Below, in pieces: positions 314 to 34,304 of a DNA stretch of 49,318 nt; position 1 is the stretch's first letter; every line of letters starts with the position of its first letter. The DNA comes from Myxococcales bacterium (GTDB lineage Bacteria > Myxococcota > Myxococcia > Myxococcales > Anaeromyxobacteraceae). The stretch covers positions 1 through 49,318 of the forward strand of contig JBBQEB010000008.1 in assembly GCA_038320275.1 (NCBI GenBank). Reading direction: 5' to 3'. The notes under the pieces are model-generated. The model searched no databases, was not told where the DNA came from, and worked only from the letters and a program-made list of their open reading frames with translations. Position numbers and translations under genes: made by a program.

Positions 314-847
314 ATGAACGACGCACGCACCTTGGCGCTCGGCGCCGCAGAAGACGCCCCGCCCGTCGGGCAGCAGCTCGCCGGGAAGTACATAACTTTC
401 AAGCTCGCTGGAGAGACGTACGGCCTCCAGATCGTGCAGGTGCGGGAGATCATCCGGCTGATGGAGATCACCCGCGTTCCGCGCGCGAGCGACCTCGTTC
501 GAGGCGTCATCAACCTCCGCGGCAAGGTCATCCCGGTGGTGGACCTTCGCCTCGCCTTCGGGCAGGCCCGCGCCGAGGCCACCGAGCAGACCGTCATCAT
601 CGTGGTGCAGTGCGCCGTCCACGGGCGAGATCTCACCATGGGGCTCCTCGTCGACGAGGTGCTGGAGGTGCTGTCCATCGACGCGGCCCACATCGAGGGG
701 CCGCCCTCTCTGGCGAACCTCGCGGTCGAGGAGAGCTTCATCCTCGGCGTCGGGAAGACCGAAGATCGCATCATCTTCCTGCTCGACATCGGGCGGGTGC
801 TGTCCGACGCGGAGGCGAGCGAGGTCAGCTCGGCGATCGCGGCGTAG
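314..847 (+). CDS. cheW: Chemotaxis coupling protein CheW
   Basis: KYITFKL..ETYGL.I..VREII...ITRVP....VRGVINLRGKVIPVVDLR CheW signature. Start moved to the in-frame ATG at 314 because the upstream part of ORF 89..847 does not look protein-like. Confidence 0.93.
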   Translation: MNDARTLALGAAEDAPPVGQQLAGKYITFKLAGETYGLQIVQVREIIRLMEITRVPRASDLVRGVINLRGKVIPVVDLRLAFGQARAEATEQTVIIVVQCAVHGRDLTMGLLVDEVLEVLSIDAAHIEGPPSLANLAVEESFILGVGKTEDRIIFLLDIGRVLSDAEASEVSSAIAA

Positions 848-919
848 GCGAACGCTTTCACGATCAGTCATTCACGCTGTCAACTGCGCGCGGCGCGAGC
901 CGGGCACGAGGGTCGAGCC

Positions 920-3121
920 ATGCTTGCGAACATGAAGACCGGAACGAAGATCCTGAGCAGCTTTGCGCTGGCGGTGGCCATCGCGGTGGTGGTGGGCGCG
1001 GTGGGGTACGTCAGCGCCGCGCGCATCGGCGATCGCCTGGAGGACGTGGCGGGGCATAAGTTTCCCTCCTCCACGACGCTCAACGTCATGAACGAGGCTC
1101 AGACGGAGGTGGGGCGCTCGATGCGCACCCTCCTGCTGCGCCGCGCCGGACCGGAAATGCGGCGCAACGCGCACACGTCGCTCGCCGTCGCCTGGAAGCG
1201 CATGGACGAGGCGGCCAGGCAGTACGAGAGCATCCCGCACGGCGAGGCGGCGCTGGCGAAGTGGAACGCCATGCGCGCGCCCTGGGCGGAGTGGCGGAGG
1301 GACAGCGAGCGCACCGTCGAGCTGGCAGCGGAGCGCGATCGGGCGGTAGAGCGCGGACTCTCCACCGACAGCGCACAGGTCCGGGCCCTGGACGAGCAGG
1401 GCTGGGCCGCCTTCGAAAAGGCCAGCCGGTCCTTCGGCCCGGCCACGGAGGCCATCACGGCGGTGCTGGAGCAGACGGCGAAGGACGTCGAGGCGGGCAA
1501 GAAGGCCGGAGAGGAGGCGGTCAAGGCGGCTTCGCTCGCCATCGCGGTGTCCATCGTGCTGGGCGCGGTGCTGCTCTTCGGGATCGGGTTCGTCCTTTCC
1601 CGGGGCATCGGCGGGACGCTGCGGGCGCTGCTCGGCGAGGCGGGAAAGCTCACCGAGGCGGTGCGGAACGGCCAGCTCGGCGTGCGCGGCGATCTGGCGG
1701 CGGTCTCGGCCGAGTTCCGGCCCATCGTGGCGGGCGTGAACGAGACCATGGAGGCCTTCAAGAAGCCGATCGAGGTGACGGCGAGCTACGTGGAGCGGAT
1801 CTCGAAGGGGGACCTGCCGCCGAAGATCACCGACGAGTACAAGGGCGACTTCAACCTCATCAAGGTGAACCTGAACACCTGCATCGACGCGCTGCACGCG
1901 CTGGTGACGGACACCAACAGCCTGGTGCAGGCGTCGATCGCGGGCCAGCTCTCGACCCGGGCCGATGCCTCGAAGCACCAGGGCGACTTCAAGAAGGTGG
2001 TCGCTGGCGTGAACGCGACGCTGGACGCGGTGCTGACGCCCATCCAGGAGGCCGCGCAGGTCCTGGAGAAGCTGGCGCAGCGCGATCTGCGGGCGCGAGT
2101 GGTGGGCGCGTACCAGGGCGACCACGCCAAGATCAAGGACTCGCTCAACGCGACCGGTGAGGCGCTGCACGAGTCGATGGCGCAGGTGGCCCAGGCGGTG
2201 ACGCAGGTGTCGGCGGCAGCGGGGCAGATCGCCTCGGCCAGCCAGGCGGTGGCGGATGGCGCCTCGGAGCAGGCGAGCTCGCTCGAGGAGACGAGCTCGT
2301 CCCTGGAGTCGATGGCGTCGATGACGAAGAGCTCCTCGGAGAGCGCGCAGCAGGCGAGCGTGCTGGCGCAGGGGGCGAAGTCGGCGGCGGCGAACGGCGG
2401 CGCGGCCATGGAGCAGATGACGGGCGCCATGCAGTCCATCAAGGCGTCGGCGGAGGGCACCTCGCAGATCATCAAGGACATCAACGAGATCGCCTTCCAG
2501 ACGAACCTCCTCGCGCTGAACGCGGCGGTGGAGGCGGCGCGGGCAGGGGAAGCGGGCCGGGGCTTCGCGGTGGTTGCGGAAGAGGTCCGCTCGCTCGCGC
2601 TGCGCGCCAAGGAGGCGGCCACCAAGACGGAGGAGCTCATCCGGCAGTCGGTGCGACAGGCGGTGGAAGGCGAGGTGACGGCCAAGCACGTGAACGAGCA
2701 GCTCGCCGAGATCAGCAGCTCGGTCACCAAGGTGAGCGAGATCGTAGCCGAGATCGCGGCCTCGTCGCGAGAGCAGTCCACCGGCATCGACCAGGTGAAC
2801 AAGGCCGTCTCGCAGATGGACTCGGTCACCCAGCAGAACGCGGCGTCGTCGGAGCAGGCCTCGTCCGCGGCGGCCGAGCTGTCCGGGCAGTCGGAGGAGC
2901 TGGCCGCCATGGTGGGCACCTTCCAGCTCGTGGGCGAGCGCACCGTGCGTCCCTCGGCGACCGTTGCCAACATCAAGTTCCAGGCGGCAGCTCCCAAGAA
3001 GCGCCCGGCCGGGTCGGCTACGGCCTTTCAGAAGCCCAAGGCACGGACCAATGGCGCCATCGCCCTCCGCCCCGAGGAGGTCATCCCCATGGACGGCGAC
3101 CCCACCTTCAAGGAGTTCTAG
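920..3121 (+). CDS. Methyl-accepting chemotaxis protein (helical periplasmic sensor, tandem HAMPs, C-terminal pentapeptide TFKEF)
   Basis: Two TM segments, HAMP-like repeats, hairpin-tip motif [34 protein letters not shown]; ends in an xFxxF pentapeptide. Confidence 0.95.
1745..2930 (+). repeat. Copy 1 of a ~1.19 kb near-identical repeat (MCP HAMP plus signalling domain)
   Basis: Matches 6476..7661 with the same offset (4731) at both ends; differences are scattered substitutions. Confidence 0.95.
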
Positions 3122-3190
3122 CCGCGGCTGGCCAGAAAGGACGCCTCGGTCATGCTCGATAACGCCCTGCTGCATGATCGAGGTGTGAGA

Positions 3191-5473
3191 ATGGCTGCAA
3201 GTGCTAAGGCGAGGTCCGCGTTTCCCGCACCCTTCGAGCCGGACCTCGTCCTCGACAGCATGCTGGAGCTGGCGGTCTTCCACGAGCTGGTGACGGGCCC
3301 CGACGGCAGGCCGGTGGACTACCGCATCCTGGAGTGCAATCCGGCGTTCACCCGCATCACGGGCATCGAGCGCTGGATGGCGGTGGGGCGCCTCGCCAGC
3401 GAGGTGTACGGGGGCCTTGCGCCTTACCTCGACACGTTCGCGCGGGTCGCGACGACGGGGAAGCCGTTCCGGTTCGACACCTACTTCGAGCCGCTCGACC
3501 GCCACTTCAGCATCTCGGTGGTCTCGCCGCGCCCGGGCTTCTTCTTCACCATCGCGAGCGACGTCACCGAGCGTCATCGCGCGGCCGTGGTCCTGCAGCG
3601 CTACGAGCTCCTCGCCCAGCACGGGCAGGACATAATGCTCTTCGTGCGCGCCGAGGATGGCAGGGTCCTGGAGGCAAACGCGGCCGCCTGCCTCGCGTAC
3701 GGCTACTCGCGCGGGGAGCTCCTCACGATGCGCATCGAGGCGCTGCGCCCGCCCGAAAGCGCTGACTTGGTCCTGGCGCAGCTTGCCCGGGCGCGGGAGG
3801 AGGGCCTTCGCTTCGAGGCGGTCCACGTCCGTAAGGACGGGACCCGCTTCCCGGTGGAGGTGACGACCAGCGCGGCTTCCCTGGGCGACGAGCGGGTCGT
3901 CGTGAGCGTCATCCGCGACGTCACGGAGCGGGCGGCCGCCCGCGACGCGCTCCGGCGCGGCGAGGCCGAGCTGCGGACCATCCTCGAGAACATCACGAGC
4001 GGGGTGGTGGTCGCCCACCTGGATGACAGCTTCATGCAATGGAATGCCGCCGCGCTCGCCATGCACGGGATCGCGGGGGATGCGGAGCCCCCGCGCACCT
4101 TCGCACAGCTTGCGCGGAGCTTCCCGGTCTTCGCGCCGGACGGCGCCAGGCTGAGCGACGAGGAGCGGCCGCTGGCGCGGGTCCTCCGCGGAGAGCACCT
4201 GCGGGACGTGGAGATCGAGGTCAGGCCCGTCGATGGCGGGTGGGCCCGCACCTTCAGCTACTCCGGAAAGCTCGTGCTGGATGCGGGCGGCAACCCTTCG
4301 CTGGCCGTCGTCACCATCCGTGACCGGACCGAGGAGCGCAAGCTGCACGCGCGGCTCGCCTCCGCGCAGAGGCTGGAGACGGTGGGGCGACTCGCCGGTG
4401 GCATCGCCCATGATTTCAACAACATCCTCACCGTCGTCCTGAGCTGCGCCGAGGCGATCAAGTCCGATCTGCGGCAGGGCATCCTTCCCAGCATGGAAGA
4501 GGTGGAGGAGATCGTGAGCGCCGGCTCCCGCGCCGCAGCGCTCACGAAGCAGCTCCTGGCCTTCGGACGGAAAGGGGTCATCGACCCCGCCACGGTCGAC
4601 CTGAACGACCTCGTGCGGGGGACGGAGAAGATGCTCCGGCGCACGCTGGGCGAGGACATCGTGCTCTCGACGGAGCTGCAGGCCGAGCTCTGGCCCACGA
4701 CCTGCGACGCTGGGCAGCTCGAGCAGGTGATCCTGAACCTCGCCATCAATGCTCGCGACGCCATGCCCGGCGGGGGACAGCTCACGCTCCAGACCCGGAA
4801 CATGGAGCCCGAAGCGCCGGACCGCGAGCCGGGCGGCGGCAGGGTGAGACTCACCGTCCGCGACACCGGCACCGGCATGTCGCCGGAGGTGAAGCGCCTC
4901 GCCTTCGAGCCCTTCTTCACCACCAAGCCCGTCGGACATGGAACCGGGCTCGGGCTTGCCACCGCGTACGGGATCGTCAAGCAGAGTGGTGGCTACATCC
5001 GGGTGGAGAGCGAGCCGGGCAAGGGTTCGGCATTCGACATCTACCTGCCCCGGGCCGCGGGGCCGAAGGTGGAGCGCGAGCGCCCGCAGCCGGCGCCGGC
5101 GCGGGGTGGAAGCGAGCGCATCCTTGTGGTGGAGGATGACAGCCAGGTGAGGGCCGTGCTGGTGGGGGCGCTTCGCGCGGGCGGCTACGACGTCATCGCG
5201 CGGTCGGGAGCGCGCGAGGCGCTGGAGCAGGGCGGGGCGGGCGGCGTTCAGCTCCTCGTCACCGACGTGATCATGCCCGAGCTGACGGGCCCGGCCCTCG
5301 CGGACGCCCTGCGCGCCCGCCATCCAGGGCTGAAGGTCCTCTTCGTCTCCGGTTACACCGGCGAGGCCATCGCGCGTCACGGCGTTCTCGAGGCGGGGGT
5401 GGAGCTGTTGTCGAAGCCTTTCACGCCGGCCGCGTTGCTGGCGCGCGTCCGGCAGGTGCTCGATAGCGCCTGA
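3191..5473 (+). CDS. Cytoplasmic hybrid sensor kinase (3 PAS-like domains, HisKA, HATPase, REC)
   Basis: H-box AHDFNNIL, N-box QVILNLAINARDAM, G boxes DTGTGM and FFTTK..G.GTGLGL, receiver LLVTDVIMP..KPF. ATG 3191 follows a GAGGTG RBS; alternative start 3152. Confidence 0.93.
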   Translation: MAASAKARSAFPAPFEPDLVLDSMLELAVFHELVTGPDGRPVDYRILECNPAFTRITGIERWMAVGRLASEVYGGLAPYLDTFARVATTGKPFRFDTYFEPLDRHFSISVVSPRPGFFFTIASDVTERHRAAVVLQRYELLAQHGQDIMLFVRAEDGRVLEANAAACLAYGYSRGELLTMRIEALRPPESADLVLAQLARAREEGLRFEAVHVRKDGTRFPVEVTTSAASLGDERVVVSVIRDVTERAAARDALRRGEAELRTILENITSGVVVAHLDDSFMQWNAAALAMHGIAGDAEPPRTFAQLARSFPVFAPDGARLSDEERPLARVLRGEHLRDVEIEVRPVDGGWARTFSYSGKLVLDAGGNPSLAVVTIRDRTEERKLHARLASAQRLETVGRLAGGIAHDFNNILTVVLSCAEAIKSDLRQGILPSMEEVEEIVSAGSRAAALTKQLLAFGRKGVIDPATVDLNDLVRGTEKMLRRTLGEDIVLSTELQAELWPTTCDAGQLEQVILNLAINARDAMPGGGQLTLQTRNMEPEAPDREPGGGRVRLTVRDTGTGMSPEVKRLAFEPFFTTKPVGHGTGLGLATAYGIVKQSGGYIRVESEPGKGSAFDIYLPRAAGPKVERERPQPAPARGGSERILVVEDDSQVRAVLVGALRAGGYDVIARSGAREALEQGGAGGVQLLVTDVIMPELTGPALADALRARHPGLKVLFVSGYTGEAIARHGVLEAGVELLSKPFTPAALLARVRQVLDSA

Positions 5474-10011: not shown

Positions 10012-10719
10012 TCACCCTGGGCCGGGGACGTCAGCCAGGAGTCGCACCTTGGCCGCGCGCTCGGCGTACCTTCGCCGGGTGCGGGCGCTGAGGTCGGGTG
10101 GCTCCGCGGCGCGCACGCTGGGGTGGGCGAGCACCGCCTCGGTCCAGGCGGACACCGCCGGGAACGAGGAGAGCATCTGGGCTTCGGGAACGCCCCACCC
10201 CTCGGTGAGGCGGAGCCGCCGCAGGAAAGGTGCGAAGGCGACGTCCACCAGGCTGAACGCCGAGCCGCCGAAGAAGGGGCCGGCCCGGTCGGCCAGGATG
10301 GCCTCGAGCGTGTCGAGGGCGTCGCGGAGGCCGGCGAGGGGCTTTGCCAAGGCGTCGCCGCTCGATCCGCCGGCCATCGCCATCAGGGCGTGAAAGCCCG
10401 CCGGCATGGCCACGTCGTTCGCAAGAGCGATGAAGCCGCGCGCCTCGGCGCGGGCGATGGGGTCGGAAGGGAAGAGCGGCCGGGCTGGATACAGCTCCTC
10501 GAGGAGCTCGTTGATGATCGATGACTCGAAGATGGGTCGGCCATCGACGAGCAGCACCGGGACCCGGCCCATGGGGGAGATGGAGAGGAACCAGGCCGGC
10601 TTGTTCGCGAGGTCGATGAACTCGATCTCGTGCGGAAGGTCCTTCTCCAGGAGGACGATCCGGCTCCGCTCGACGTAAGGACAGAGCTCGAAGGAGATGA
10701 GCTTCAGATGATGCGGCAT
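10012..10719 (-). CDS. Glutathione S-transferase family protein
   Basis: CPYVER, ISPMGRVPVL, IFESSII, FSLVD motifs. Confidence 0.9.
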   Translation of the reverse strand: MPHHLKLISFELCPYVERSRIVLLEKDLPHEIEFIDLANKPAWFLSISPMGRVPVLLVDGRPIFESSIINELLEELYPARPLFPSDPIARAEARGFIALANDVAMPAGFHALMAMAGGSSGDALAKPLAGLRDALDTLEAILADRAGPFFGGSAFSLVDVAFAPFLRRLRLTEGWGVPEAQMLSSFPAVSAWTEAVLAHPSVRAAEPPDLSARTRRRYAERAAKVRLLADVPGPG

Positions 10720-10784
10720 GGAGCCTCCGCGGGTGTTCCAGCGACGTCGTTCGATGGACGGCAGAGCTTCGCGAGTCTTGCTGC

Positions 10785-11384
10785 CTACACGAACTTGCGG
10801 GCGTCGAGCGTCGCGCCCTGGTGCTTGCCCTCGACCGCCGCCAGGTAGGCCTTGGCGCAGGCCGCGGCGGGGATGCCGCCCGCAGGGTTCATGTTCATCC
10901 GCGCCAGCGTCTCCGAGATCCAGGGCGGGCTCACCACGTTGATGCGCTGCCCGTTCTGGAGCTCCACCGCGGCGCTCAGGACGAAGCCCTCCAGCGCCGC
11001 GTTCACCATGGAGATGGCGGAGGCGCCGGGCATGGGCTCGTGGGCGAGCGCGCCGCCGGTGAGAGTGACCGATCCACCTTTGCCGAGGTGCTGGAGCGCG
11101 ATGCGGGCGAGGTTCACCTGGCCCATGAGCTTGCTCCGCAGCCCGAGCTCGAAGTCCTCGTCGGAGAGCTGGGACAGCGGCTTGAACGCGGCGCTGCCCG
11201 CGCAGCTCACCACCGCGCCCACGCCCTTCACCTTCGAGAAGAGCTCCCGCAGCGACGCCGCGTCGTCGAGGTCGGCCTTCACCTCGCCGTGGCGGGAGAC
11301 GCGCACCACCTCGTGACGCGATGAGAGTGCCTGCGCGACGGCGGACCCGATGGTGCCGGTGGCTCCAACGACGACGATCTTCAT
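10785..11384 (-). CDS. Short-chain dehydrogenase/reductase
   Basis: MKIVVVGATGTIG Rossmann start, SKLMGQVNL, RINVVSP; GGAGGAG RBS. Confidence 0.9.
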   Translation of the reverse strand: MKIVVVGATGTIGSAVAQALSSRHEVVRVSRHGEVKADLDDAASLRELFSKVKGVGAVVSCAGSAAFKPLSQLSDEDFELGLRSKLMGQVNLARIALQHLGKGGSVTLTGGALAHEPMPGASAISMVNAALEGFVLSAAVELQNGQRINVVSPPWISETLARMNMNPAGGIPAAACAKAYLAAVEGKHQGATLDARKFV

Positions 11385-11562
11385 ATGCTCCTCCCGAGCA
11401 AGGGCTGGCCGCCCTGTGGTGTAGCGGCGGTCAGGCGGCGCCGCCCCTCTGCGCGGGCGGGCCGGAGCTCATGGCGAGCGCCTCGGAACGGTGGTGCGAA
11501 ACCATGTGGCGCGGGCGTGGGCCGCGGCCGGCATGGTGCTCGAAGGTCCGAGCTTTTCTCGC

Positions 11563-12393
11563 TCATCCCTGGAGCGTAGCGCGGCGCTGGCTTCGCTGGC
11601 CGTGGGAAGTGGCCGGAAGGGCTCTCGCACCACGGGTGGCAGGGGCCTTCGGTCCCGAGATCGCAACGGTGGCACTCGGCGGCAAGCTCGCGGGTCGCCG
11701 CAGCTCGCTCACCTGCACCAGCTCGAAGCCGCGCGCGCGCAGCCCCTCGACGATCTCGGGAAGCGCCTCGGCGGTGTGGAAGCGGGGATGGTTCATGTGC
11801 ATGACGACGATGGAACCGGGCCGAGCTGCGCGCAGGACCCAGCGCACGATGGCGTCCTTGGAGAGGTGGGGATCGGGATCGCCGGAGGGGAGGTCGTACT
11901 CGACGGTGGCGAGCCCCAGCGCGGCGGCGTCGCGCACGACTCTCGAGTCGTACTCGCCGAAGGGCGGGCGGAAGAGCGTCGGCGCGCGCCCAGTGCGCGC
12001 AGCGATCGCGGCCTGCGTCCGAAGGAGCTCGTCGCGGATCTGCGCATCCGTGTCGCGGGTGAGGTGCGGATGGCTGAAGGTGTGGTTTCCGAGCTCGAAG
12101 AGCGGGTCCGCGGCGAGCCGCTCGAGCGCCATGGGCTCCTCCATCGCCCAGCCACCCCCGACGAAGATGGTCGCGGGAACGCCCAGCCTGTCGAGGATGG
12201 CCGGGATGCGGGCGTCGAAGGGCGTCGGGTCGCGGGTCGTACAGAGGTCGAAGGTGAGGGCGACGCGGCGCTCTGCCCGCGTACCGTGCGAGAGCGCGAG
12301 GAGCGTGTCGGCGCGACCTGCGGCGCGGGTGGCGGAAGGAACGGCGAGCGTCAGTGCCAGGGTTGCCAGAGCGGCGGGAACGGTGCGCCTCAT
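11563..12393 (-). CDS. Secreted polysaccharide deacetylase (NodB/CE4 family)
   Basis: Signal peptide; VALTFDL, ELGNHTFSHP, FRPPFG, IVVMH motifs. Confidence 0.88.
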   Translation of the reverse strand: MRRTVPAALATLALTLAVPSATRAAGRADTLLALSHGTRAERRVALTFDLCTTRDPTPFDARIPAILDRLGVPATIFVGGGWAMEEPMALERLAADPLFELGNHTFSHPHLTRDTDAQIRDELLRTQAAIAARTGRAPTLFRPPFGEYDSRVVRDAAALGLATVEYDLPSGDPDPHLSKDAIVRWVLRAARPGSIVVMHMNHPRFHTAEALPEIVEGLRARGFELVQVSELRRPASLPPSATVAISGPKAPATRGARALPATSHGQRSQRRATLQG

Positions 12394-12447
12394 GCATCAG
12401 GGACGCGCCGCCCCCGCCCTGGATTCACGAGGCGCCCGGAAGAAGAC

Positions 12448-12918
12448 CTAGAACAGGCCCTTGAGGATGCCGCCCAGCGTGTCGTGCGACGCGCCCTCGG
12501 GCGGCACGTTGCCGTCCGGCGTGAGCTTGTCCACCAGGCTCGGCAGGATTCCCGAGAGCTGGCCTGCGAGCGCGCTGCGGTCGAGGCCGGTCTGCTGCGA
12601 GAGCTGATCGAGCCGCTCTGGGCCCAATGCCTCCTGGACCTGATCGGCCGATACGGGCTGATTGGGGCCCTGCGATACCCAGGAGCCCGCCACGTGCCCC
12701 AGCCCCTTCTGCTGGAATGCGGACAGGATCTGCTGGAGCCCGCCCCCGGCCAGCAGGCCCATCAGCGCTGGAATGAGCGCGCCGCCCATGCCGCCGGTGA
12801 GCCCACCCAGCCCCCCGCCACCCAGCGCGCCGCCCAGGCCGCCGCCTGAGGAGCTTTGACCAACCTGGCCACCACCCTGTCCACCCAGAGTCTTTCCCAG
12901 CTCGTCGAGAATGCCCAT
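12448..12918 (-). CDS. YidB/DUF937-like protein
   Basis: MGILD start, Gly-rich segment, SWVSQGPNQPVS and LPSLVDKLTPDG motifs; real gene is the 3' part of ORF 12448..13968. Confidence 0.82.
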   Translation of the reverse strand: MGILDELGKTLGGQGGGQVGQSSSGGGLGGALGGGGLGGLTGGMGGALIPALMGLLAGGGLQQILSAFQQKGLGHVAGSWVSQGPNQPVSADQVQEALGPERLDQLSQQTGLDRSALAGQLSGILPSLVDKLTPDGNVPPEGASHDTLGGILKGLF

Positions 12919-12953
12919 GGTCGTCGTCCTTTCGTGAGAGGCGGCGCGGCGCG

Positions 12954-13385
12954 CTACTCCGGGATCTTCAGCTTCTGCCCGGGCTGGATGACGTTCGGGT
13001 CGCGGAGCTGATCGCGGTTGGCTTCGAAGATCTTTCCGTACTTGGAAGCATCGCCGTAGAAGTGCTTGGCGATCTTGGAGAGCGAGTCCCCCGAGACCAC
13101 CTGGTAGGTCCTCGCGCCGTCGCCGGAGCTCTGCTGCGAGGAAGCGGGCGCCGCGGGAGCGGGCAAGCTGGCGTCGACGCTGATGTCGGCAGTGAGGTCC
13201 GCGTATTGCGCATCGACCGACTTGATGGCAGTCCAGACCTCGTTCTTGATGGCGTCGTTCGGCGCCGCCCCGCGGATGAGGAGCTTGTCGCCTTCGAGGT
13301 TGATGTTCTTCCAGGAGACGCCCCGGCGAGCGCCCGCGTCGATCACCGATTGATACTTCGCCTTGAGCTGCGCTTCGTCTGCCAT
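12954..13385 (-). CDS. LysM domain protein (YgaU/Kbp-like, with BON-like N-terminus)
   Basis: C-terminal LysM YQVVSGDSLSKIAKHFYG...IFEANR.....P..IQPGQKLKIP; ATG 13385 follows a purine-rich RBS. Confidence 0.88.
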   Translation of the reverse strand: MADEAQLKAKYQSVIDAGARRGVSWKNINLEGDKLLIRGAAPNDAIKNEVWTAIKSVDAQYADLTADISVDASLPAPAAPASSQQSSGDGARTYQVVSGDSLSKIAKHFYGDASKYGKIFEANRDQLRDPNVIQPGQKLKIPE

Positions 13386-21755: not shown

Positions 21756-24700
21756 CTAGACCTTCTCGACGTTCACGATGAACGCCTTGAACTCGGGCGT
21801 CTGGACGTTGGCGTCGCCCACGTACGGGGTGAGCGTGTTCGCGAGGTACCCAGGCTTGGTCAGCCCCTCGAACCCCCAGTGGATCGGGATCCCCACCGTG
21901 TGCACGGTCTTGCCCGCGATCTGGAGCGGCCCGATGCGCCTCGTCACCACCGCCTTCGCCACGATGGACCCGCGCTTCGAGCGCACCCGCACCTTGTCGC
22001 CCTCTCGGATGCCCTTCTCCTTGGCCAGCGCCTCGCCGATCTCCACGAACTGCTCGGGCTGCAGGATGGCGGGGATGCGCGCGTGCTTCGTCCAGAAGTG
22101 GAAGTGCTCGGTGAGCCGGTAGGTGGTGGCCGCGTGCGGGAACTCCTCGGAAGTGCCGAGCATGGCCCTGTCTTCCTTGAAGATCCGCGCCGCCGGATTG
22201 TTCCGGGCGAGCGGCGACTTGTGCATGGGATTGCCCGCGATGGGGCTCTCGAACGGCTCGTAGTGCTCGGGGAAGGGGCCGTCGACCATCTTGTCCGCGC
22301 CGAAGAGCCGGCCCACGCCCTCGGGGAGCAGGATGAAGGGGGCCATCCCGGCCGAGGGTGGCACGTCCGGCTTGTAGTCGGGTACGTCGGCGCCAACCCA
22401 TTTCTCGCCGGTCCAGCGGACCAGCGTCCGGCTCGCGTCCCAGGGCTTCCCGGCAGGATCGCAGGAGGCGACGTTGTAGAGGACCCGGCGATTGGCCGGC
22501 CAGGCCCAGGCCCAGCCCGGAGCGAGCCCGAGCCCGCTGGGATCGTCGGGGTCGCGGCGCGCCATGAGGTTCTTGTCGGTGTAACACCCGCAGTAGATCC
22601 AGCACCCGCACGCCGTCGTGCCGTCGTCTCGCAACAGCCCGAAGGTGGTGAGCTGATCGCCCTTCTTGGCGAGGGTCTTCGACGGGTCGGCGGGGTCGGG
22701 CAGGTCGGCCAGCGCGCGCCCGTTGTACTCCCGCGCGAGCTCCTCGGGCGAAGGGCTCGCTGGCCGTTGGTACGGCCAGGTGAGCTTCAGGATGGGGTCC
22801 GGGGTCTTGCCGCCCTCCTTGGCGTAGAGCTCCTTCACCCGGTGGAAGATGCCGGCGATGATCTCGGCGTCACCCCAGGCGTCTCCCGGCGCGGCCGCGC
22901 CCTTGTGGTGCCACTGCAGCCAGCGGGATGAGTTGGTGAGCGAGCCGTCCTCCTCCGCGAAGCAGGTGGAGGGCAGCCGGAACACCTCGGTCTGGATCTT
23001 CGACGGGTCGACCGGGTTGTGGTCCCCAGCGTTCTTCCAGAAGCTGGCCGTCTCGGTGGCGAGGGGGTCGATGCTCACGAGGAATTTCAGCCTGGAGAGG
23101 GCCTCGGTGACCTTGGCCTTGTTCGGCACCGAGGCGAGCGGATTGAAGCCCTGGCACAGGTAGCCGTTCACCTTCCCCTGGTGCATGAGGTCGAAGACGG
23201 TGAGGACGTCGTAGAGCTTGTCGAGCTTGGGCAGGTAGTCGTAAGCGAAGCCGTTCTCCTTCGTGGCCGCGTCGCCCCACCACGACTTCATGAGCGAGAC
23301 GTAGAACTTGCCGTAGTTCTGCCAGTAGCTCATCTGCCCCGGCCGCAGCGGCTTCAGCGCCCGCGCCTCCACGTACCGTGCGGAATCGGCCTCGCTCTCC
23401 TTCGGGATGGTGAGGTAGCCGGGCAACAGGTCGGAGAGGACGCCCAGGTCCGTGAGCCCCTGGATGTTGGAGTGGCCGCGGAGCGCGTTCACGCCGCCGC
23501 CCGCCATGCCCATGTTGCCGAGCAGGAGCTGGATCATGGCCATCGAGCGGATGTTCTGCGCCCCGACGGAGTGCTGGGTCCAGCCGAGCGCGTAGAGGCT
23601 CGTCATGGTGCGGTTGGGCACGGAGGTGCTCGCCACGAGCTCGCACACCTGGTGGAACTTCGCGACGTCGGCGCCGGTGACGCTCGCCACCACCTCGGGC
23701 GTGTAGCGCGAAACGTGCTTCAGGAGGAGCTGGTAGACGCAGCGTGGATGCTGGAAGGTGGGGTCCACCTTGGCGAACCCGTCCGGCCCGAGCTCGTAGG
23801 CCCAGGTCGCCTTGTCGTAGCTCCGAGCGGCCTCGTCGTACCCGGAGAACAGCCCGTCGTCGAACCCGTAGGCCTCCCGCACGATGAACGACGCGTTGGT
23901 GAACGCCTTCACGTATTCGTGCTGGATCCGGCCGTTTTCGAGCAGGTACTTCATGATGCCGGACAGGAACGCGATGTCGCTCCCGGGCCGGATCTGCACG
24001 TACAGGTCGGCCACCGCGGCGGTGCGCGTGAAGCGCGGGTCCACCACGATGAGCTGTGCCTTGTTGTGCACCTTGGCCTCGGTCACCCACTTGAAGCCGC
24101 AGGGGTGCGCCTCGGCGGGATTGCCTCCCATCACCATCACGACGTTGGCGTTCTTGATGTCTGTCCAGTGATTGGTCATCGCGCCACGGCCGAACGAGGT
24201 GGCCAGACCGGCCACCGTGGGTCCGTGTCAAACACGCGCCTGGTTGTCGATGGCGACCACCCCCATGGATCGGAACGCCTTGTGCGTGAGGTAGCCGGTC
24301 TCGTTGGAGGCGGCGCTCGCGGCGAGCACGCCGAAGGTCGGCCAGCGGTTGACGGTGACACCCTTCGCGTTGCGCTCCACGAAGTTGGCGTCGCGATCGT
24401 CCTTCATGAGCCGCGCGATCCGGTCGAGCGCCCAGCTCCACTCCACCCGCTTCCACTCGTTCGAGCCCGGCGCGCGGTGCTCCGGCTGCACCAGCCGGTC
24501 GGGGCTGTTCACGAAGTCGAGCAGGCTCGCGCCCTTGGGGCAGAGCGTGCCGCGGTTGACCGGATGGTCGGCGTCGCCCTCGACGTGGACGATCTTCGAC
24601 CTCGTGTTCTTGGCCCCGTCACCGAGCGCGTACAGGACGATGCCGCATCCCACCGAGCAGTAGGGGCAGGTATTGCGCGTCTCGCGGGTGCGGGCGAGCT

Positions 24701-24815
24701 TGAACTGGCGGGTCTGCGCCAGCACCGGCTCCGGCGCGAAGCCGAGCGCGGCCAGGCTGGTCGCGCCCACGGTGGTCGCGGAGAGCTGAAGGAATCGCCT
24801 GCGCGTGACGTCCAT
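21756..24815 (-). CDS. fdnG: Selenocysteine-containing formate dehydrogenase alpha subunit (Tat-exported molybdoenzyme)
   Basis: ORFs 24228..24815 and 21756..24215 are in the same frame, joined through TGA 24228-24230 in NQARV-U-HGPTVAGL; Tat motif TRRRFL; CPYCSVGC Fe-S motif. Confidence 0.95.
24198..24230 (-). promoter_or_regulatory. Sec UGA codon and bacterial SECIS hairpin
   Basis: UGA, 11 nt, then stem GGUGGCC / GGCCACC with loop GGUCU. Confidence 0.88.
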
Positions 24816-29673: not shown

Positions 29674-30036
29674 GTGCGACCTCCGGAGTTGGGGCCGGGT
29701 TGTAACGGGAGGCGCGGCGGGGGGGCGGGTTATCGCGGCGTAGGCCAGCCGGGCTGGAGCGAGGGGTCAGAGAATGCCGTGGCATGGCGGGCAGCCCCCG
29801 GCAACCCGGGGAAGCCGCCTGCACAAGGGTCCTCGCCAAACCCGGTTCATGCGCCTGAACCAGTTTCCCCCTCCCCATGTGTCAGCGTGTGTCGCTGGTA
29901 TCCGTTCACGATGCCGGCGAGGAGCGCGTCGGCCGGGAGGCGGCTGGGCGCGACGACGGGTGGGTCGCGCCGGCGGGCCCAGGCGGGCACGTCCGTCGAT
30001 CGACTCGCAGCAATAGCCTCCCAATCAAGGTGGCGG

Positions 30037-30069
30037 TTGGTATCACCTTGGTATCACCTTGGTATGACC
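30037..30069. repeat. Three tandem 11-bp repeats TTGGTATCACC
   Basis: ttggtatcacc ttggtatcacc ttggtatgacc, ending 44 nt upstream of the HNH ATG. Confidence 0.95.
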
Positions 30070-30113
30070 GCGAGCGCAATGCCAATGTCAGACCGTCGTG
30101 TGATGTTGCTCCC

Positions 30114-31355
30114 ATGACCGACGCTCGAAGCTTCGCCCGTGAGCTCGCGACGCTCCTTCGTCGCGAGCAGGCCGCCACCGCCGAATTCCTCGCCGCACTG
30201 GCACGATTCGACGAGCGGCGCTGCTGGGAGGATCTCGGCTACACGAGCCTCTTCTACTTCCTTCACCGCGAGCTGCGCCTGTCGAAGGGCGCCGCCTTTT
30301 ACCGCTCGCAGGCAGCAGTGCTGGTGCGCCGCCACCCCGAGGTGCTCGACGCCCTCCGCGATGGGCAGCTGTGCCTGAGCAGCGTCGCTGAGCTGGCAAA
30401 GGTGCTCACTCCAGACAATCAGGCGGAGGTCCTCCCGCGCTTCTTCCACGCCTCGAGCCGCGAGGCGAAGGTGGTCGTGGCGGAGCTGCGGCCCGCAGCG
30501 AGACTCCCGCAGCGCGATGTCATGACCGTGAGACCCGACACCGCTGACGTGCGCGGCATCCCGGGGAGCGAGGTTGAATCTGCTTCTGCGATGCCCTCCC
30601 CCCTCGGCTTGGCGCCGGCCTTCGTCTCGCCGTCGCCGGACGCGGCACCTCCCTTGGCCGCGGGTGTGGCGCAAGACACTGCGTTTGCCGCTGTTGTTGC
30701 TGCTGTCCCGACCCCCGGCTCCGCTCGGGCGGCACCGCGAACGTTCCAGCCTGACGAAGTGCAGCCGCTCACCGGCGATTTGCGCCGGTTACACGTAACC
30801 GTTTCGCGCCGCGTCGTGGACAAGCTGACCGCGGCGCGCGATGCGCTCTCGCACGCGTTGCCCGACGCCAGCACGGCCGACGTCCTGGAACGGGCGCTCG
30901 ACGCCTTTCTTCTTGCCGACGCGAGGAAGAGGAAAGCCGCCGCCGATCGGCCACGCCCGCGGGGGCCGGCAGCCAGTGTGCCGGCGAGCGATCCGGTCGG
31001 TGAGGGGGGGAGGGCGTCCGCGACGCCGGACACCCGTACGTCTCGTCATGTTCCCGCCGAGGTCAAGCGCGCGGTATGGGCTCGGGACGAGGCCCGCTGC
31101 CAGTTTACCCTCGCGAACGGCGGCATCTGCGGCTCCACGCGGTGGCTGGAGATCGACCACGTCGTGCCGGTGGCGCGCGGCGGGCCGTCCACGGTCGAGA
31201 ACACGCGCCTCCTGTGCGGTCTGCACAACCAGCTGGCGGCGCGCAGGACCTTCGGAGCCGGCTGGATGCGCCACCGCGTCGAGGCGAGGAGGGGCTCGTC
31301 AGTTCAGACGCTTGAACCGAGCAGCGCACCCCATGTGCCAGGCATCGTGCTCTGA
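30114..31355 (+). CDS. HNH endonuclease with long helical (DUF222-like) N-terminal region
   Basis: C-terminal R.VP..VKRAVW.RD..RC....C....LEIDHVVP.ARGG.....N..LLC..HN; start ATG 30114. Confidence 0.85.
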   Translation: MTDARSFARELATLLRREQAATAEFLAALARFDERRCWEDLGYTSLFYFLHRELRLSKGAAFYRSQAAVLVRRHPEVLDALRDGQLCLSSVAELAKVLTPDNQAEVLPRFFHASSREAKVVVAELRPAARLPQRDVMTVRPDTADVRGIPGSEVESASAMPSPLGLAPAFVSPSPDAAPPLAAGVAQDTAFAAVVAAVPTPGSARAAPRTFQPDEVQPLTGDLRRLHVTVSRRVVDKLTAARDALSHALPDASTADVLERALDAFLLADARKRKAAADRPRPRGPAASVPASDPVGEGGRASATPDTRTSRHVPAEVKRAVWARDEARCQFTLANGGICGSTRWLEIDHVVPVARGGPSTVENTRLLCGLHNQLAARRTFGAGWMRHRVEARRGSSVQTLEPSSAPHVPGIVL

Positions 31356-31453: not shown

Positions 31454-31675
31454 ATGCAAACCTCCGGTGCCCAGCTCTCGCCCGACCGGCGCCAAACGGT
31501 CCTCGTCTCCGGCGGCTGTCCAGACGTCTGCCCCCGCTGCCAGGCGGACCTCGCCCACGCCTACCGTGAGGTGAGCCTCCTCGCGGTGATGGACGACGGC
31601 GAGGAGGTCCGCGTGCGGGGCCACGCGTGCGCCCGCTGCGGCTGGTGCTGCACGAACGGCCTGGAGGGCGATTAG
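31454..31675 (+). CDS. Small zinc-ribbon protein (73 aa)
   Basis: CPRC ... CARC pair separated by a likely beta-hairpin; GC3-rich codons. Confidence 0.6.
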   Translation: MQTSGAQLSPDRRQTVLVSGGCPDVCPRCQADLAHAYREVSLLAVMDDGEEVRVRGHACARCGWCCTNGLEGD

Positions 31676-31795
31676 CCGGGCTCGTCGCGCCACGTGAAGG
31701 GGGATCAGCCGGGCTCGTCGCGCCGCGGAAAGGAGACCAGACGGGTTCATCTGCCGCGGAAAGGGGCAATCATACGGGCTCGTTCCGGCCGGGGA
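31670..31795. repeat. Four degenerate ~33-bp tandem repeats
   Basis: Units start at 31670, 31703, 31735 and 31768 (core a.cgggctcgtc..gcc.cg..aagg), spanning two convergent stop codons. Confidence 0.8.
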
Positions 31796-33527
31796 TGGAG
31801 GGCACTTCGATCAGCATGTCGAAGGCGCCGCGCGTCGGTGGCCGGAGCGGCACCGCGAGCGGGTCCTCGCGCAGCTCGGGCGGCCCGCACACCGGGCACG
31901 CCTCGTCGCGGATCACGGTGAGCCAGACGCTCTGGAATGCGAGCTGGCCGGGCACCTCGCCGAAGAGCTGCGGGTAGAACCAGTAGTCTGGCACGGTGGA
32001 GAGGGTGAGGTAGGGCGTGCCGGCGGCGATGACGCGCTCCGTGAAGCCGGCCAGGCGCGCGCCCTCCTCGCCCGCCGAGAGCAGCGAGAGCCCGAGCTTC
32101 ACGCCCGCGCTCGCCACGTGGTGGATGTCGGCGGCGATGGCGCTCTCCCCCTGCAGGCGCCCGGAGCCGTAGTCCACCAGCCGCTCCGGGCCGCCGCTCG
32201 AGCCAGAGGTGCCCGTCGTACCCGTCGAAGCGGAGATACCGCCCCCCGTCCCCGGAAGCCGGTGCCGCGCCCCGGTCGCGCACAGGAAGCAGGGCGTTCG
32301 CTCAGGCGCGGACAGCACCACCTCCCCGCCCTCCGCGCCGGCGTAGAGCCCCACGAAGAGCGCCGGCCGGCCGCGGGCGTAGGCGAAGCGATTGAGGGCG
32401 CGCTGCGCAGCCGGGTCATCGGTCGCAGCGACGACGAGATCGGCCGCCCGGACCGCCTGGTCGAGGTCCGCCGGCGCGAGATCCTGGACCGAGCCCGCCA
32501 GGGAATCGACCCGGGCGGTGGGACTCACCGCCCGAAGCCTTCGCGCCAGCGCCTCGACCTTGAACGTGCCCACGTCGCGCGCCTCGTACACCGAGCGGGA
32601 GAGGTTCGCCCCCTCCACCCGCTCCGGGTCCACGAGCGTGAACGCTCCCACGCCGCTCCGGGCGAGCGCCTCGGCCATGTAGGAGCCCACCGAGCCGCAG
32701 CCAGCGACCAGCACCCGGCGCTCCGCGAGCGCGCGCGGGAGGATCCCGGCGCTGCGCGCGAAGAGCGCGCCGCGGTCCAAGGCAGGAAGAGCCGCGCGCA
32801 GGCCCAGGACGAGCCGCTCCTCCTCTCGATCCTGGAGCCGCCAGGGCAGCTCGAGCTGCTCCGTTCTGCCATCCCGGGTCGCAAGCACCAGCGGAGGCAT
32901 CGCCGGGTAGCTCAGCGCCGCGACGATGAGGAGCTCCATGCCCCCGGCGCCCTCGAGCCGCCCCGATGGCAGCGGGCCGGTGCCGAGGTCGGTGAGGAGG
33001 AGCTCCGGCAGCGCGCCGGGGGAAACCTCCCGCGCGGCCGCCTCGAGGTCGCGAAGGAGCGGAAGGGCGCGGACAGGGACGGGCCGGAGCTCCGCGCCCC
33101 CCTCCGCAAGCCGCCTCCCGGTGAAGAAGGACACCTTGCCCGACGGCAGCGGGAGCTCGTGCCCGGCGAGCTCGCCCGCGGGGCCACGGGTGACGATGGG
33201 CGCAAGGTAGGTGCCGAGGTGACCGTTCCTGCGCAGCCCCTCCGCCACCTCCCGCGCGTCCTGCTCCGAGGGATGATCCATCCCGGGCGGATGCGAGTGG
33301 ACGAGCCCCTTCAGCTCGAGCCCCTCCTCCCGCTCCAGCGCCTGCACGCGCCGGCCGAGCGAGGCCGAGGGGCTCCAGCTGGCCGAGCTGGAGCGCGCTC
33401 CGGGGTCCGGTTCCAGGCGGGTGACGAGCGGGACTCCCGGCGGGCCCAGCAGCGCGCCACCGCGCTCCGCCGGCGGGGCGCAGATGGCCTCCTCCACCGC
33501 GCGGAGCACCGCGTCGAGGACGGTCAC
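31770..33527 (-). CDS. JAB/MPN+ peptidase - E2/RWD-like - ThiF/E1 adenylation enzyme fusion
   Basis: N-terminus ERGG...HSHPPGMDHPSEQD (E...HxH-x7-S-x2-D); middle LSYPAMPP (YPxxPP); C-terminus VAGCGSVGS, DPERVEGANLSR, ATD, CFLC and CPVC. Confidence 0.88.
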   Translation of the reverse strand: MTVLDAVLRAVEEAICAPPAERGGALLGPPGVPLVTRLEPDPGARSSSASWSPSASLGRRVQALEREEGLELKGLVHSHPPGMDHPSEQDAREVAEGLRRNGHLGTYLAPIVTRGPAGELAGHELPLPSGKVSFFTGRRLAEGGAELRPVPVRALPLLRDLEAAAREVSPGALPELLLTDLGTGPLPSGRLEGAGGMELLIVAALSYPAMPPLVLATRDGRTEQLELPWRLQDREEERLVLGLRAALPALDRGALFARSAGILPRALAERRVLVAGCGSVGSYMAEALARSGVGAFTLVDPERVEGANLSRSVYEARDVGTFKVEALARRLRAVSPTARVDSLAGSVQDLAPADLDQAVRAADLVVAATDDPAAQRALNRFAYARGRPALFVGLYAGAEGGEVVLSAPERTPCFLCATGARHRLPGTGGGISASTGTTGTSGSSGGPERLVDYGSGRLQGESAIAADIHHVASAGVKLGLSLLSAGEEGARLAGFTERVIAAGTPYLTLSTVPDYWFYPQLFGEVPGQLAFQSVWLTVIRDEACPVCGPPELREDPLAVPLRPPTRGAFDMLIEVPSIPGRNEPV

Positions 33528-33681
33528 AGCAGGTGCCGCGACTCAGGCACAGCGCCCACCCCGGGCACCGATCCTCTCGCCCTGGCGGGCGGCCCCGTCG
33601 TTCCGCTGCTCGCCGTGGCGACCCTCCGGCTCCGCTGCTCACCTCCCGGGCGCCACCCCCGCTTCGGTCTCGACGCCCTCG

Positions 33682-33903
33682 TCACTTCACCATGCCCGGG
33701 CCGAGACACAGGCTGCCAGCGGCGAACACGGCCGGATGGATCTCCGAGAGCTGCCGCCCTTCGTCGCGCCCGGGCTCCTCGTCGCCCACCACGATGCGCC
33801 CCTCGCGATCGACGAACACACGGCGGCGGCGCGGCTCCGGCGCGGCGTCGCCGCGGGCGCCTTCGTCGAGGGCGCGGAACTGGTTCAGGCGGATGTCGGA
33901 CAT
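33682..33903 (-). CDS. Small protein (73 aa), candidate conjugated modifier
   Basis: MSDIRLNQF...RRVFVDREGRIVVG...LSEIHPAVFAAGSLCLGPGMVK; GAGGGAG RBS; start overlaps the 3' end of the E2-like gene. Function is inference. Confidence 0.68.
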   Translation of the reverse strand: MSDIRLNQFRALDEGARGDAAPEPRRRRVFVDREGRIVVGDEEPGRDEGRQLSEIHPAVFAAGSLCLGPGMVK

Positions 33904-34304
33904 GGAACGTCTCCCTCGGGCCGGGGCCCGTCGACAGCAAAGGTGCCCTGGTAGGCGCTGAAGCCGTTCGCCCACGCGACGCTGAGCGCGAAGGCCTCCG
34001 GGAGCGATCGCGTCCCCCCGCCGCCAGGGCCGAAGCAGATGCGGGCGTCGCGGAAGAGGTGCGAGGCGTGCAGGTCGAGACGGTTCCAGAGGTCGGGGCG
34101 GATCACCCGCACCTGGTAGACGCTGCCGTCGAACCAAGCGAACAGCTGGTAGAGGTCGCCCCCGGTGGTGGTCACCGGGTAGAGCCACCCCCGCGTTCCC
34201 TCCACGGTCAGCTCTCGCGTGGCCCGCGGCATGTGTCCCGCCGCGTAGGTGCGGTCGCGGCCCGAGCGCGTCATCCCGGCGAGCGCGGTGGAGAGGGTGC
34301 CCAC
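33885..34304 (-). CDS. Prokaryotic E2 (UBC-fold)-like protein
   Basis: Predicted beta-meander followed by HASHLFRDARIC (cf. E2 HPH/N...G.IC, Cys at 34035-34037) and a helix with Trp (SVAWANGF). Confidence 0.68.
   Translation of the reverse strand: MGTLSTALAGMTRSGRDRTYAAGHMPRATRELTVEGTRGWLYPVTTTGGDLYQLFAWFDGSVYQVRVIRPDLWNRLDLHASHLFRDARICFGPGGGGTRSLPEAFALSVAWANGFSAYQGTFAVDGPRPEGDVPCPTSA

Follow-up and report, generated by a model that had tools for sequence, protein, structure and literature searches.

Bacterial pathways that combine an E1, an E2 and a JAB protease act on two kinds of substrate: dedicated small modifiers, which in Bil, Bub and the ubiquitin-like proteins (Ubls) of ternary systems are described as β-grasp proteins, and whole signalling enzymes (described systems are compared here as presented in the available sections of the papers on them). 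We analyzed a three-gene cassette in a 49,318-nucleotide (nt) stretch of contig JBBQEB010000008.1 from a Myxococcales bacterium of the family Anaeromyxobacteraceae; this whole stretch is called the window. The best reading of the cassette is a self-contained, ubiquitination-like protein-tagging system with a tag of ~60 residues predicted to be non-β-grasp. A previous reading of the window's letters (the sequence-only reading) had proposed a compact operon of an E2, a small candidate modifier and a JAB-pseudoE2-E1 fusion, and the three co-directional open reading frames (ORFs; 139, 73 and 585 amino acids, aa) and every motif it quoted are present in the sequence. The genes, with their third-position GC (GC3), are:

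33885 to 34304, minus strand: 139-aa E2 gene (UBC fold) starting with GTG; putative catalytic Cys90 in an HxxH...C motif, GC3 0.89
33682 to 33903, minus strand: candidate modifier precursor gene, 73 aa, with free-standing homologues and a conserved core, GC3 0.89
33528 to 33681, no strand: spacer of 154 nt, unusually long for the cassette
31770 to 33527, minus strand: gene for a JAB - middle domain - ThiF/E1 fusion, 585 aa, with domains assigned by Pfam, GC3 0.91

The three genes are conserved together in many genomes. The cassette is present in 26 of the 77 genomes of the window's family and was not found in 337 sampled genomes of other families of the phylum; among 401 sampled cyanobacteria it occurs in the centre genome only. 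Named homologues elsewhere come from cyanobacteria, Chlorobiaceae, Hyphomonas and Nitrosomonadaceae, and cultured genomes with homologues include Anaeromyxobacter dehalogenans 2CP-C and 2CP-1, Fw109-5 and Kamptonema. A search with the E2 motif yielded 70 metagenome loci, 34 of them with enough flank; 33 of these 34 contain all parts, in at least five gene arrangements across the metagenome loci. The description of the genes as closely packed holds for the first two, which overlap by 19 nt, but not for the third, as 154 nt separate the modifier gene from the JAB-E1 gene. This spacer is at most 15 nt long in 24 of the 26 family loci, versus 154 nt in the window, where it is spanned without a gap by a single contig of run X1, possibly the source sample.

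The 139-aa protein had been called E2-like, and structure prediction bears this out: the UBC fold of the family was confirmed on a homologue with an AlphaFold2 (AF2) model and a fold search. The active site maps to one short segment:

34035 to 34070, minus strand: HASHLFRDARIC motif (His79, His82, Cys90), whose His and Cys columns align with the ubiquitin-conjugating enzyme 3we5 (E 0.07)

The putative catalytic Cys is kept in 131 of 149 representatives and the two His upstream of it in 118 and 137, respectively. The GTG start is supported by homologue P0003, which aligns from residue 3. The structures and families nearest to the E2 family are the E2s of E2-type cyclic oligonucleotide-based antiphage signalling systems (CBASS), and PADLOC model PDLC00876 is matched by 33 of 82 members; this likeness is remote, with a best E of 5e-6, and with that model the window's E2 misses E 1e-6. 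Neither the window's E2 nor its 73-aa protein has a match in Pfam, PADLOC or NCBIfam.

The 73-aa protein is likely the tag, to judge from its sequence pattern. Two parts can be told apart:

33721 to 33903, minus strand: predicted mature modifier, 61 aa, ending in Phe60-Ala61
33685 to 33720, minus strand: unconserved 12-residue tail, predicted to be removed by JAB; tails of 0–12 residues vary among homologues

The conserved core ends in Phe-Ala (F-A) in 52 of 52 distinct free-standing units from family genomes and metagenome loci, a count for which the search pattern fixed Phe and left Ala free and which includes the window's copy and one partial duplicate. Fifteen of these units stop at F-A and 37 add 1–12 unconserved residues; of 72 aligned units, 71 have the Phe and 64 the Ala. 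A constant F-A core followed by a variable tail is, at the level of sequence, the pattern of a protease-trimmed precursor. Together with the E2 fold and the co-occurrence of the genes, this pattern upholds the proposal of a distinct E1/E2/JAB conjugation cassette. In the window's family the modifier is a separate gene between E2 and JAB-E1, and a cyanobacterial homologue is fused in front of the E2; the 150 representatives comprise E2s with one (76), two (12), three (2) or no (60) fused units. A quick E2 tree places free units at several positions, interleaved with fused forms. In a confident AF2 model of a fused homologue, the unit is well ordered, with a predicted local distance difference test score (pLDDT) of 85–96 over residues 1–70, and consists of one helix followed by three two-residue strands. 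The modifier is thus not predicted to be a β-grasp protein, as its element order differs; this call is based on predicted secondary structure and not on a fold search.

The JAB, middle and E1 segments of the 585-aa protein are laid out as follows (motif positions as read from the sequence):

33237 to 33509, minus strand: JAB/MPN+ peptidase domain, residues 7–97 (Pfam Prok-JAB, E 6e-11), with E21, H77, S78, H79, S87 and D90
33299 to 33258, minus strand: JAB motif HSH...D
32790 to 33062, minus strand: Cys-less middle domain, residues 156–246, with a YPxxP motif, weakly RWD/UEV-like
32909 to 32892, minus strand: YPAMPP motif of the middle domain
31878 to 32732, minus strand: ThiF/E1 adenylation domain (Pfam ThiF, residues 266–421, E 4e-33), with glycine loop 276–281, R311, K323 and zinc-type CxxC pairs 413/416 and 544/547
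32291 to 32280 and 31898 to 31887, minus strand: the CxxC pairs of E1
32169 to 32171, minus strand: Tyr453 (D-Y-G), invariant and located past the first CxxC; it may stand in for a catalytic Cys as the nucleophile of E1, as BubCD Y370 suggests by analogy

The proposed JAB-pseudoE2-E1 fusion stands in its outer parts, which Pfam recognizes, and in the absence of a conserved Cys from its middle domain, but the RWD-like label of that domain finds few and weak matches (RWD, 3/30; UEV, 2/30). The listed JAB residues and the E1 nucleotide-binding residues are invariant across 97 aligned sequences. The only invariant cysteines of the E1 are those of the two CxxC pairs; no catalytic Cys is conserved. 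Tyr453 is the invariant residue between the first CxxC and the next helix. It recalls the Bub E1, since BubCD lacks a crossover Cys and requires Tyr370 (PMC11601596), and by this analogy may act as the E1 nucleophile. At loci L051, L062, L079 and L112, where JAB and E1 are separate genes, each half carries a copy of the middle domain, which suggests an adaptor role. The PADLOC E1-E2 models and the NCBIfam 6A-MBL model match mainly the E1 part of the fusion; the latter (NF058523) scores 94 versus a cut-off of 320, over the E1 part only.

Gene content, co-occurrence, residue conservation, the E2 fold and the F-A boundary are established. We consider it probable that JAB trims the tag, E1 adenylates its Ala and the E2 Cys transfers it to targets. 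JAB would cut the precursor after Phe-Ala, removing the short tail in the window's cassette and, in other lineages, freeing the tag from tag-E2 and tag-tag-E2 polyproteins. The E1 domain, whose ThiF site is intact, would then adenylate the C-terminal Ala with ATP. Because the E1 lacks a conserved catalytic Cys, the tag may reach the E2 either via an oxyester on Tyr453 or directly from the adenylate, a step of which we are less sure. Held on the E2 Cys as a thioester, the tag would then be passed, with no E3 involved, to an amine, most probably that of a lysine in the target. JAB may also reverse conjugation, and the middle domain, more speculatively, probably positions the tag or the E2.

If this mechanism is correct, a short non-β-grasp tag that ends in Ala and occurs in 1–3 tandem copies would imply that the conjugation chemistry does not need the ubiquitin fold, and a Tyr-type E1 feeding a Cys-type E2 would lie between the Bub and CBASS chemistries. 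The system is directly testable, as it comprises three small soluble proteins with homologues in named cultured genomes. More tentatively, and in our view rather unlikely as a whole, the family may constitute a separate class of modifiers: a helix-plus-hairpin of ~60 residues, made as a precursor or a polyubiquitin-like repeat, ending in Phe-Ala (Phe-His/Tyr in other clades) and passed on by a mixed relay in which a tyrosine oxyester on the E1 hands over to a cysteine thioester on the E2. Such modifiers might correspond, as free proteins, to the tail with which E2-CBASS cyclases bind their E2, and would then connect stand-alone tags with conjugation in CBASS.

Several points weigh against tagging by a JAB-trimmed modifier. 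Every mechanistic step is drawn from anatomy and precedent, and the placing of Tyr453 at the BubCD Y370 position is a putative equivalence drawn by analogy. The cut site may differ between clades, since the residue after Phe is not always Ala (in 202 fused units: A 118, Y 53, H 11, F 10, other 10); a small residue comes next in roughly two thirds of either group, which does not settle the register. Modelled alone, the window's unit folds poorly (pLDDT 56.6, predicted TM-score, pTM, 0.22) and may therefore need a partner to become ordered. The metagenome counts overstate independence, since many of these loci are near-duplicates. In 20 Anaeromyxobacteraceae loci there is neither a visible fourth gene that is conserved nor a visible E3 or target. 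Finally, the window's copy is atypical: its spacer is long, and its E2 does not end in the F-[PA]-[FY] present in 23 of the 26 family loci.

Four other explanations keep the same three proteins and assign them different tasks. The small protein could be a precursor or carrier akin to those of ribosomally synthesized and post-translationally modified peptides, with ThiF activating its C-terminus as MccB or PaaA does and the E2 coupling it to a small molecule, lipid or nucleotide. MccB and PaaA indeed match the E1 profile with scores similar to that of Cap2, the unit is flexible in the model when alone, no protein target gene is linked to the cassette in the 20 family loci, and non-protein targets are not excluded even for Cap2 (PMC10097602). 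We nevertheless regard such a peptide pathway as improbable: no transporter, tailoring enzyme or immunity gene recurs beside the cassette, whose constant partners are a Cys-type E2 and a JAB protease, as in protein-conjugation systems. A role as a sulfur carrier, thiocarboxylated like ThiS or MoaD, is the least credible option. It is prompted by the best Pfam and NCBIfam matches, which are ThiF/MoeB families and all lie under the NCBIfam cut-offs, but the small protein has no Gly-Gly end and no predicted β-grasp, no sulfur-pathway gene recurs nearby, and the genome carries separate ThiF-like genes on C103 and C179. We also know of no place for an E2 in sulfur-carrier pathways.

The remaining two options concern the relation of the small protein to the E2. 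It could be a non-covalent subunit or regulator, a detached N-terminal domain of the E2, with the true E1 substrate encoded elsewhere; the unit is fused to E2 in most family members and is ordered in the fusion model but not alone, a comparison of two different sequences. Against a subunit role, the most conserved end of the unit is its C-terminal F-A, after which tails vary freely, the unit occurs in tandem copies and, once, in front of E1 (L112), and there is no other candidate substrate, as neither SMODS nor DUF6527 is matched in four family genomes, three of them single-contig. We judge a pure subunit role unlikely. Alternatively, the E2 might charge itself by transpeptidation as in Serratia E2-CBASS, its Cys cutting after F-A and holding on to the tag as a thioester with no need of ATP; E1 and JAB would then serve recycling or reversal. 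E2-CBASS E2s are the closest structures and families, and one of them, SmE2, acts as a protease through a His-Cys pair (10.1101/2022.05.25.493364). In the E2 family studied here, the Cys is preceded by two conserved His, and 37 of the 52 free units have a removable tail. The other 15 end at F-A and offer no bond to cut, and E2-CBASS has no E1 or JAB, whereas both are kept here with intact sites; we give self-charging little credence. ATP-dependent tagging by a JAB-trimmed modifier remains our preferred reading.

The flanks are not conserved across 20 family loci, and no defence island surrounds the cassette in Anaeromyxobacteraceae. Five of 85 neighbouring proteins match PADLOC models at E 1e-15, mostly with generic AAA, helicase or HTH-type domains, and one match is to a CBASS-type exonuclease model; the 85 comprise 82 of 117 listed neighbours and three from the window, with ORFs called heuristically, so that some may be wrong frames. 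Among 92 proteins scanned in other lineages, neighbours include CHAT, iSTAND, MoxR-type AAA, vWA, TIR, trypsin and tandem AAA proteins. Proteins of these kinds occur in conflict systems of multicellular bacteria (PMC7159879). The antiphage role raised by the sequence-only reading is possible. We put a conflict or antiphage response at not quite an even chance and a stress or regulatory function slightly below that.

In cyanobacteria, one cassette is flanked by a CHAT-NACHT gene and by CHAT-iSTAND, MoxR-type AAA and vWA genes (L001:3702-14333). A tandem AAA+ ATPase of the AAA_lid_6 type directly follows the cassette in L071:9520-12642, L082:8014-10605, L087:9451-12066 and L101:7552-10173, that of L071 ending in an NYN RNase domain; it is a possible reader or effector of the tag. 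The split cassette of L112 lies between an FtsK-family gene (650-3688) and an RT-Cas1 fusion (10587-13199), and carries a modifier fused in front of the middle domain-E1 (L112:7592-9121). Other fusions join DnaJ to modifier and E2 (DnaJ-...-modifier-E2, L055:1-1017) and the E2-like domain to DUF1232 (L008:2559-3377) or an AAA domain (L074:121-1473). Tandem E2 genes lie inside the cassettes of L082-L086, L089, L101, L104 and L105. A DUF2510 protein gene precedes the modifier gene in L075:6554-6958, L082:4609-5040, L101:4243-4605 and L090:3137-3565, and in L090 the last residues of the DUF2510 protein resemble the modifier's first helix. A different cyanobacterial cassette (L142, G729:C163:16067-19423) combines a 74-aa ORF ending in Tyr with an E2 gene and ThiF-like and JAB-like genes, the latter two labelled by eye; its 74-aa ORF barely matches the modifier profile (E 0.024).

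The window's copy departs from its family by the long spacer, an E2 without an aromatic end, the longest tag tail seen (12 residues) and a tag helix with a gap of two residues. Its catalytic residues are all intact; the copy may be mildly eroded. The E2 end (33885-33950, minus strand) reads ...GTFA instead of the usual F-P-F and extends 17 residues into the modifier gene; its likeness to the tag's own end may be due to chance. Just downstream of the JAB-E1 stop, positions 31662-31764 hold a pair of 33-nt direct repeats that are 88% alike, together with an exact repeat of 12 nt. By Pfam, an AlkA glycosylase gene lies on one side of the cassette and an HNH-domain ORF on the other; the latter (29877-31355, plus strand, 492 aa, C-terminal HNH domain) has a lower GC3 of 0.79 and is convergent with the cassette. 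Further away, two consecutive ORFs (21756-24815, minus strand) resemble what we take to be a formate dehydrogenase alpha subunit split at a stop near 24228, which is probably a selenocysteine TGA.

Full-text literature searches turned up no description of the cassette, although its genes may be listed in supplementary operon tables or in subscription papers about E1/E2 families of prokaryotes. Its novelty is smaller than the sequence-only reading suggests: fusion of JAB to E1 already occurs in type I Bub (PMC11601596), and class 6a has a triple fusion in the order E2-E1-JAB (PMC1779556).

Type I Bub (6E.1; BubAB, BubCD, BubE; PMC11601596) shares with the window's fusion a JAB in front of E1, to which the cassette adds the Cys-less domain in between. 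Its modifier is fused before E2 in 1–3 copies, as in the relatives of the window's cassette (90 of 150 family representatives have such a fusion; the window has two separate genes). Its E1 has a Tyr and no crossover Cys; the E1 here has no conserved catalytic Cys and an invariant Tyr453 that may be the equivalent of Y370. The Bub modifier, however, is a β-grasp protein ending in Gly, whereas the predicted non-β-grasp modifier here ends in F-A; BubB uses Ser where the E2 here keeps Cys; and the Bub operon has a DUF6527 gene (BubE), which the cassette lacks. PF20137 (DUF6527) has no match in genomes G000, G001, G003 and G006, and its match in G414 is on another contig.

In E2-CBASS (Serratia CdnG and E2; PMC12948482, 10.1101/2022.05.25.493364), which provides the best structural and profile match of the stand-alone E2, the CdnG tail that binds the E2 is a helix followed by three strands, the element order predicted for the modifier (PMC12948482). 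E2-CBASS has a CD-NTase with a tail ending in Gly, an effector and no E1 or JAB; the cassette has E1 and JAB and neither CD-NTase nor effector. The absence of a CD-NTase agrees with the sequence-only reading: one profile, SMODS, had no match in five genomes, including the window's 91%-complete genome, and the cassette's neighbours are the AlkA and HNH genes. Homology of the modifier to CdnG-type cyclase tails was tested on eight tails, with no significant match (E 0.1, reached by 6 of 100 shuffles). Eight E2-CBASS-type loci (L141, L143-L149) have cyclase-like ORFs that end in aromatic-aromatic/His-Gly plus 1–10 residues.

Type II CBASS (Cap2/Cap3; PMC10097602, 10.1101/2022.03.31.486616) directs E1, E2 and JAB to a non-β-grasp substrate that ends in Gly or Ala; the predicted mature end here is Ala. 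Cap2 joins an E2 to an E1 and has a crossover Cys, Cap3 is separate and the substrate is a cyclase of ~400 aa, all unlike the cassette, in which a middle domain without conserved Cys, and not an active E2, adjoins E1. The class 6a or 6A-MBL triple fusion (PMC1779556, section 14; NF058523) also joins JAB, an E2-type domain and E1 in one chain, but in the order E2-E1-JAB, with an active E2 and a metallo-β-lactamase partner; the cassette has neither this order nor this partner. Bil (PMC11601603, PMC11601596) comprises a small modifier, E2, JAB and E1 and no E3, as does the cassette, but differs in its β-grasp Ubl ending in Gly, its separate genes and its multidomain E1 with a Cys domain. In the Ubl systems of FtsH/TERNS3 ternary conflict systems (PMC7159879, PMC8195603), a modifier-E2 fusion is released by JAB, and caspase-like and vWA-MoxR genes adjoin, as at some cyanobacterial cassette loci; their EAD1-Ubl-E2 with separate JAB, E1 and RING genes is unlike the cassette. 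The cassette lacks features that define Bub, Bil, 6A-MBL and the two CBASS types. Its layout is closest to that of type I Bub; the type of its E2 and the end of its tag are closest to CBASS.

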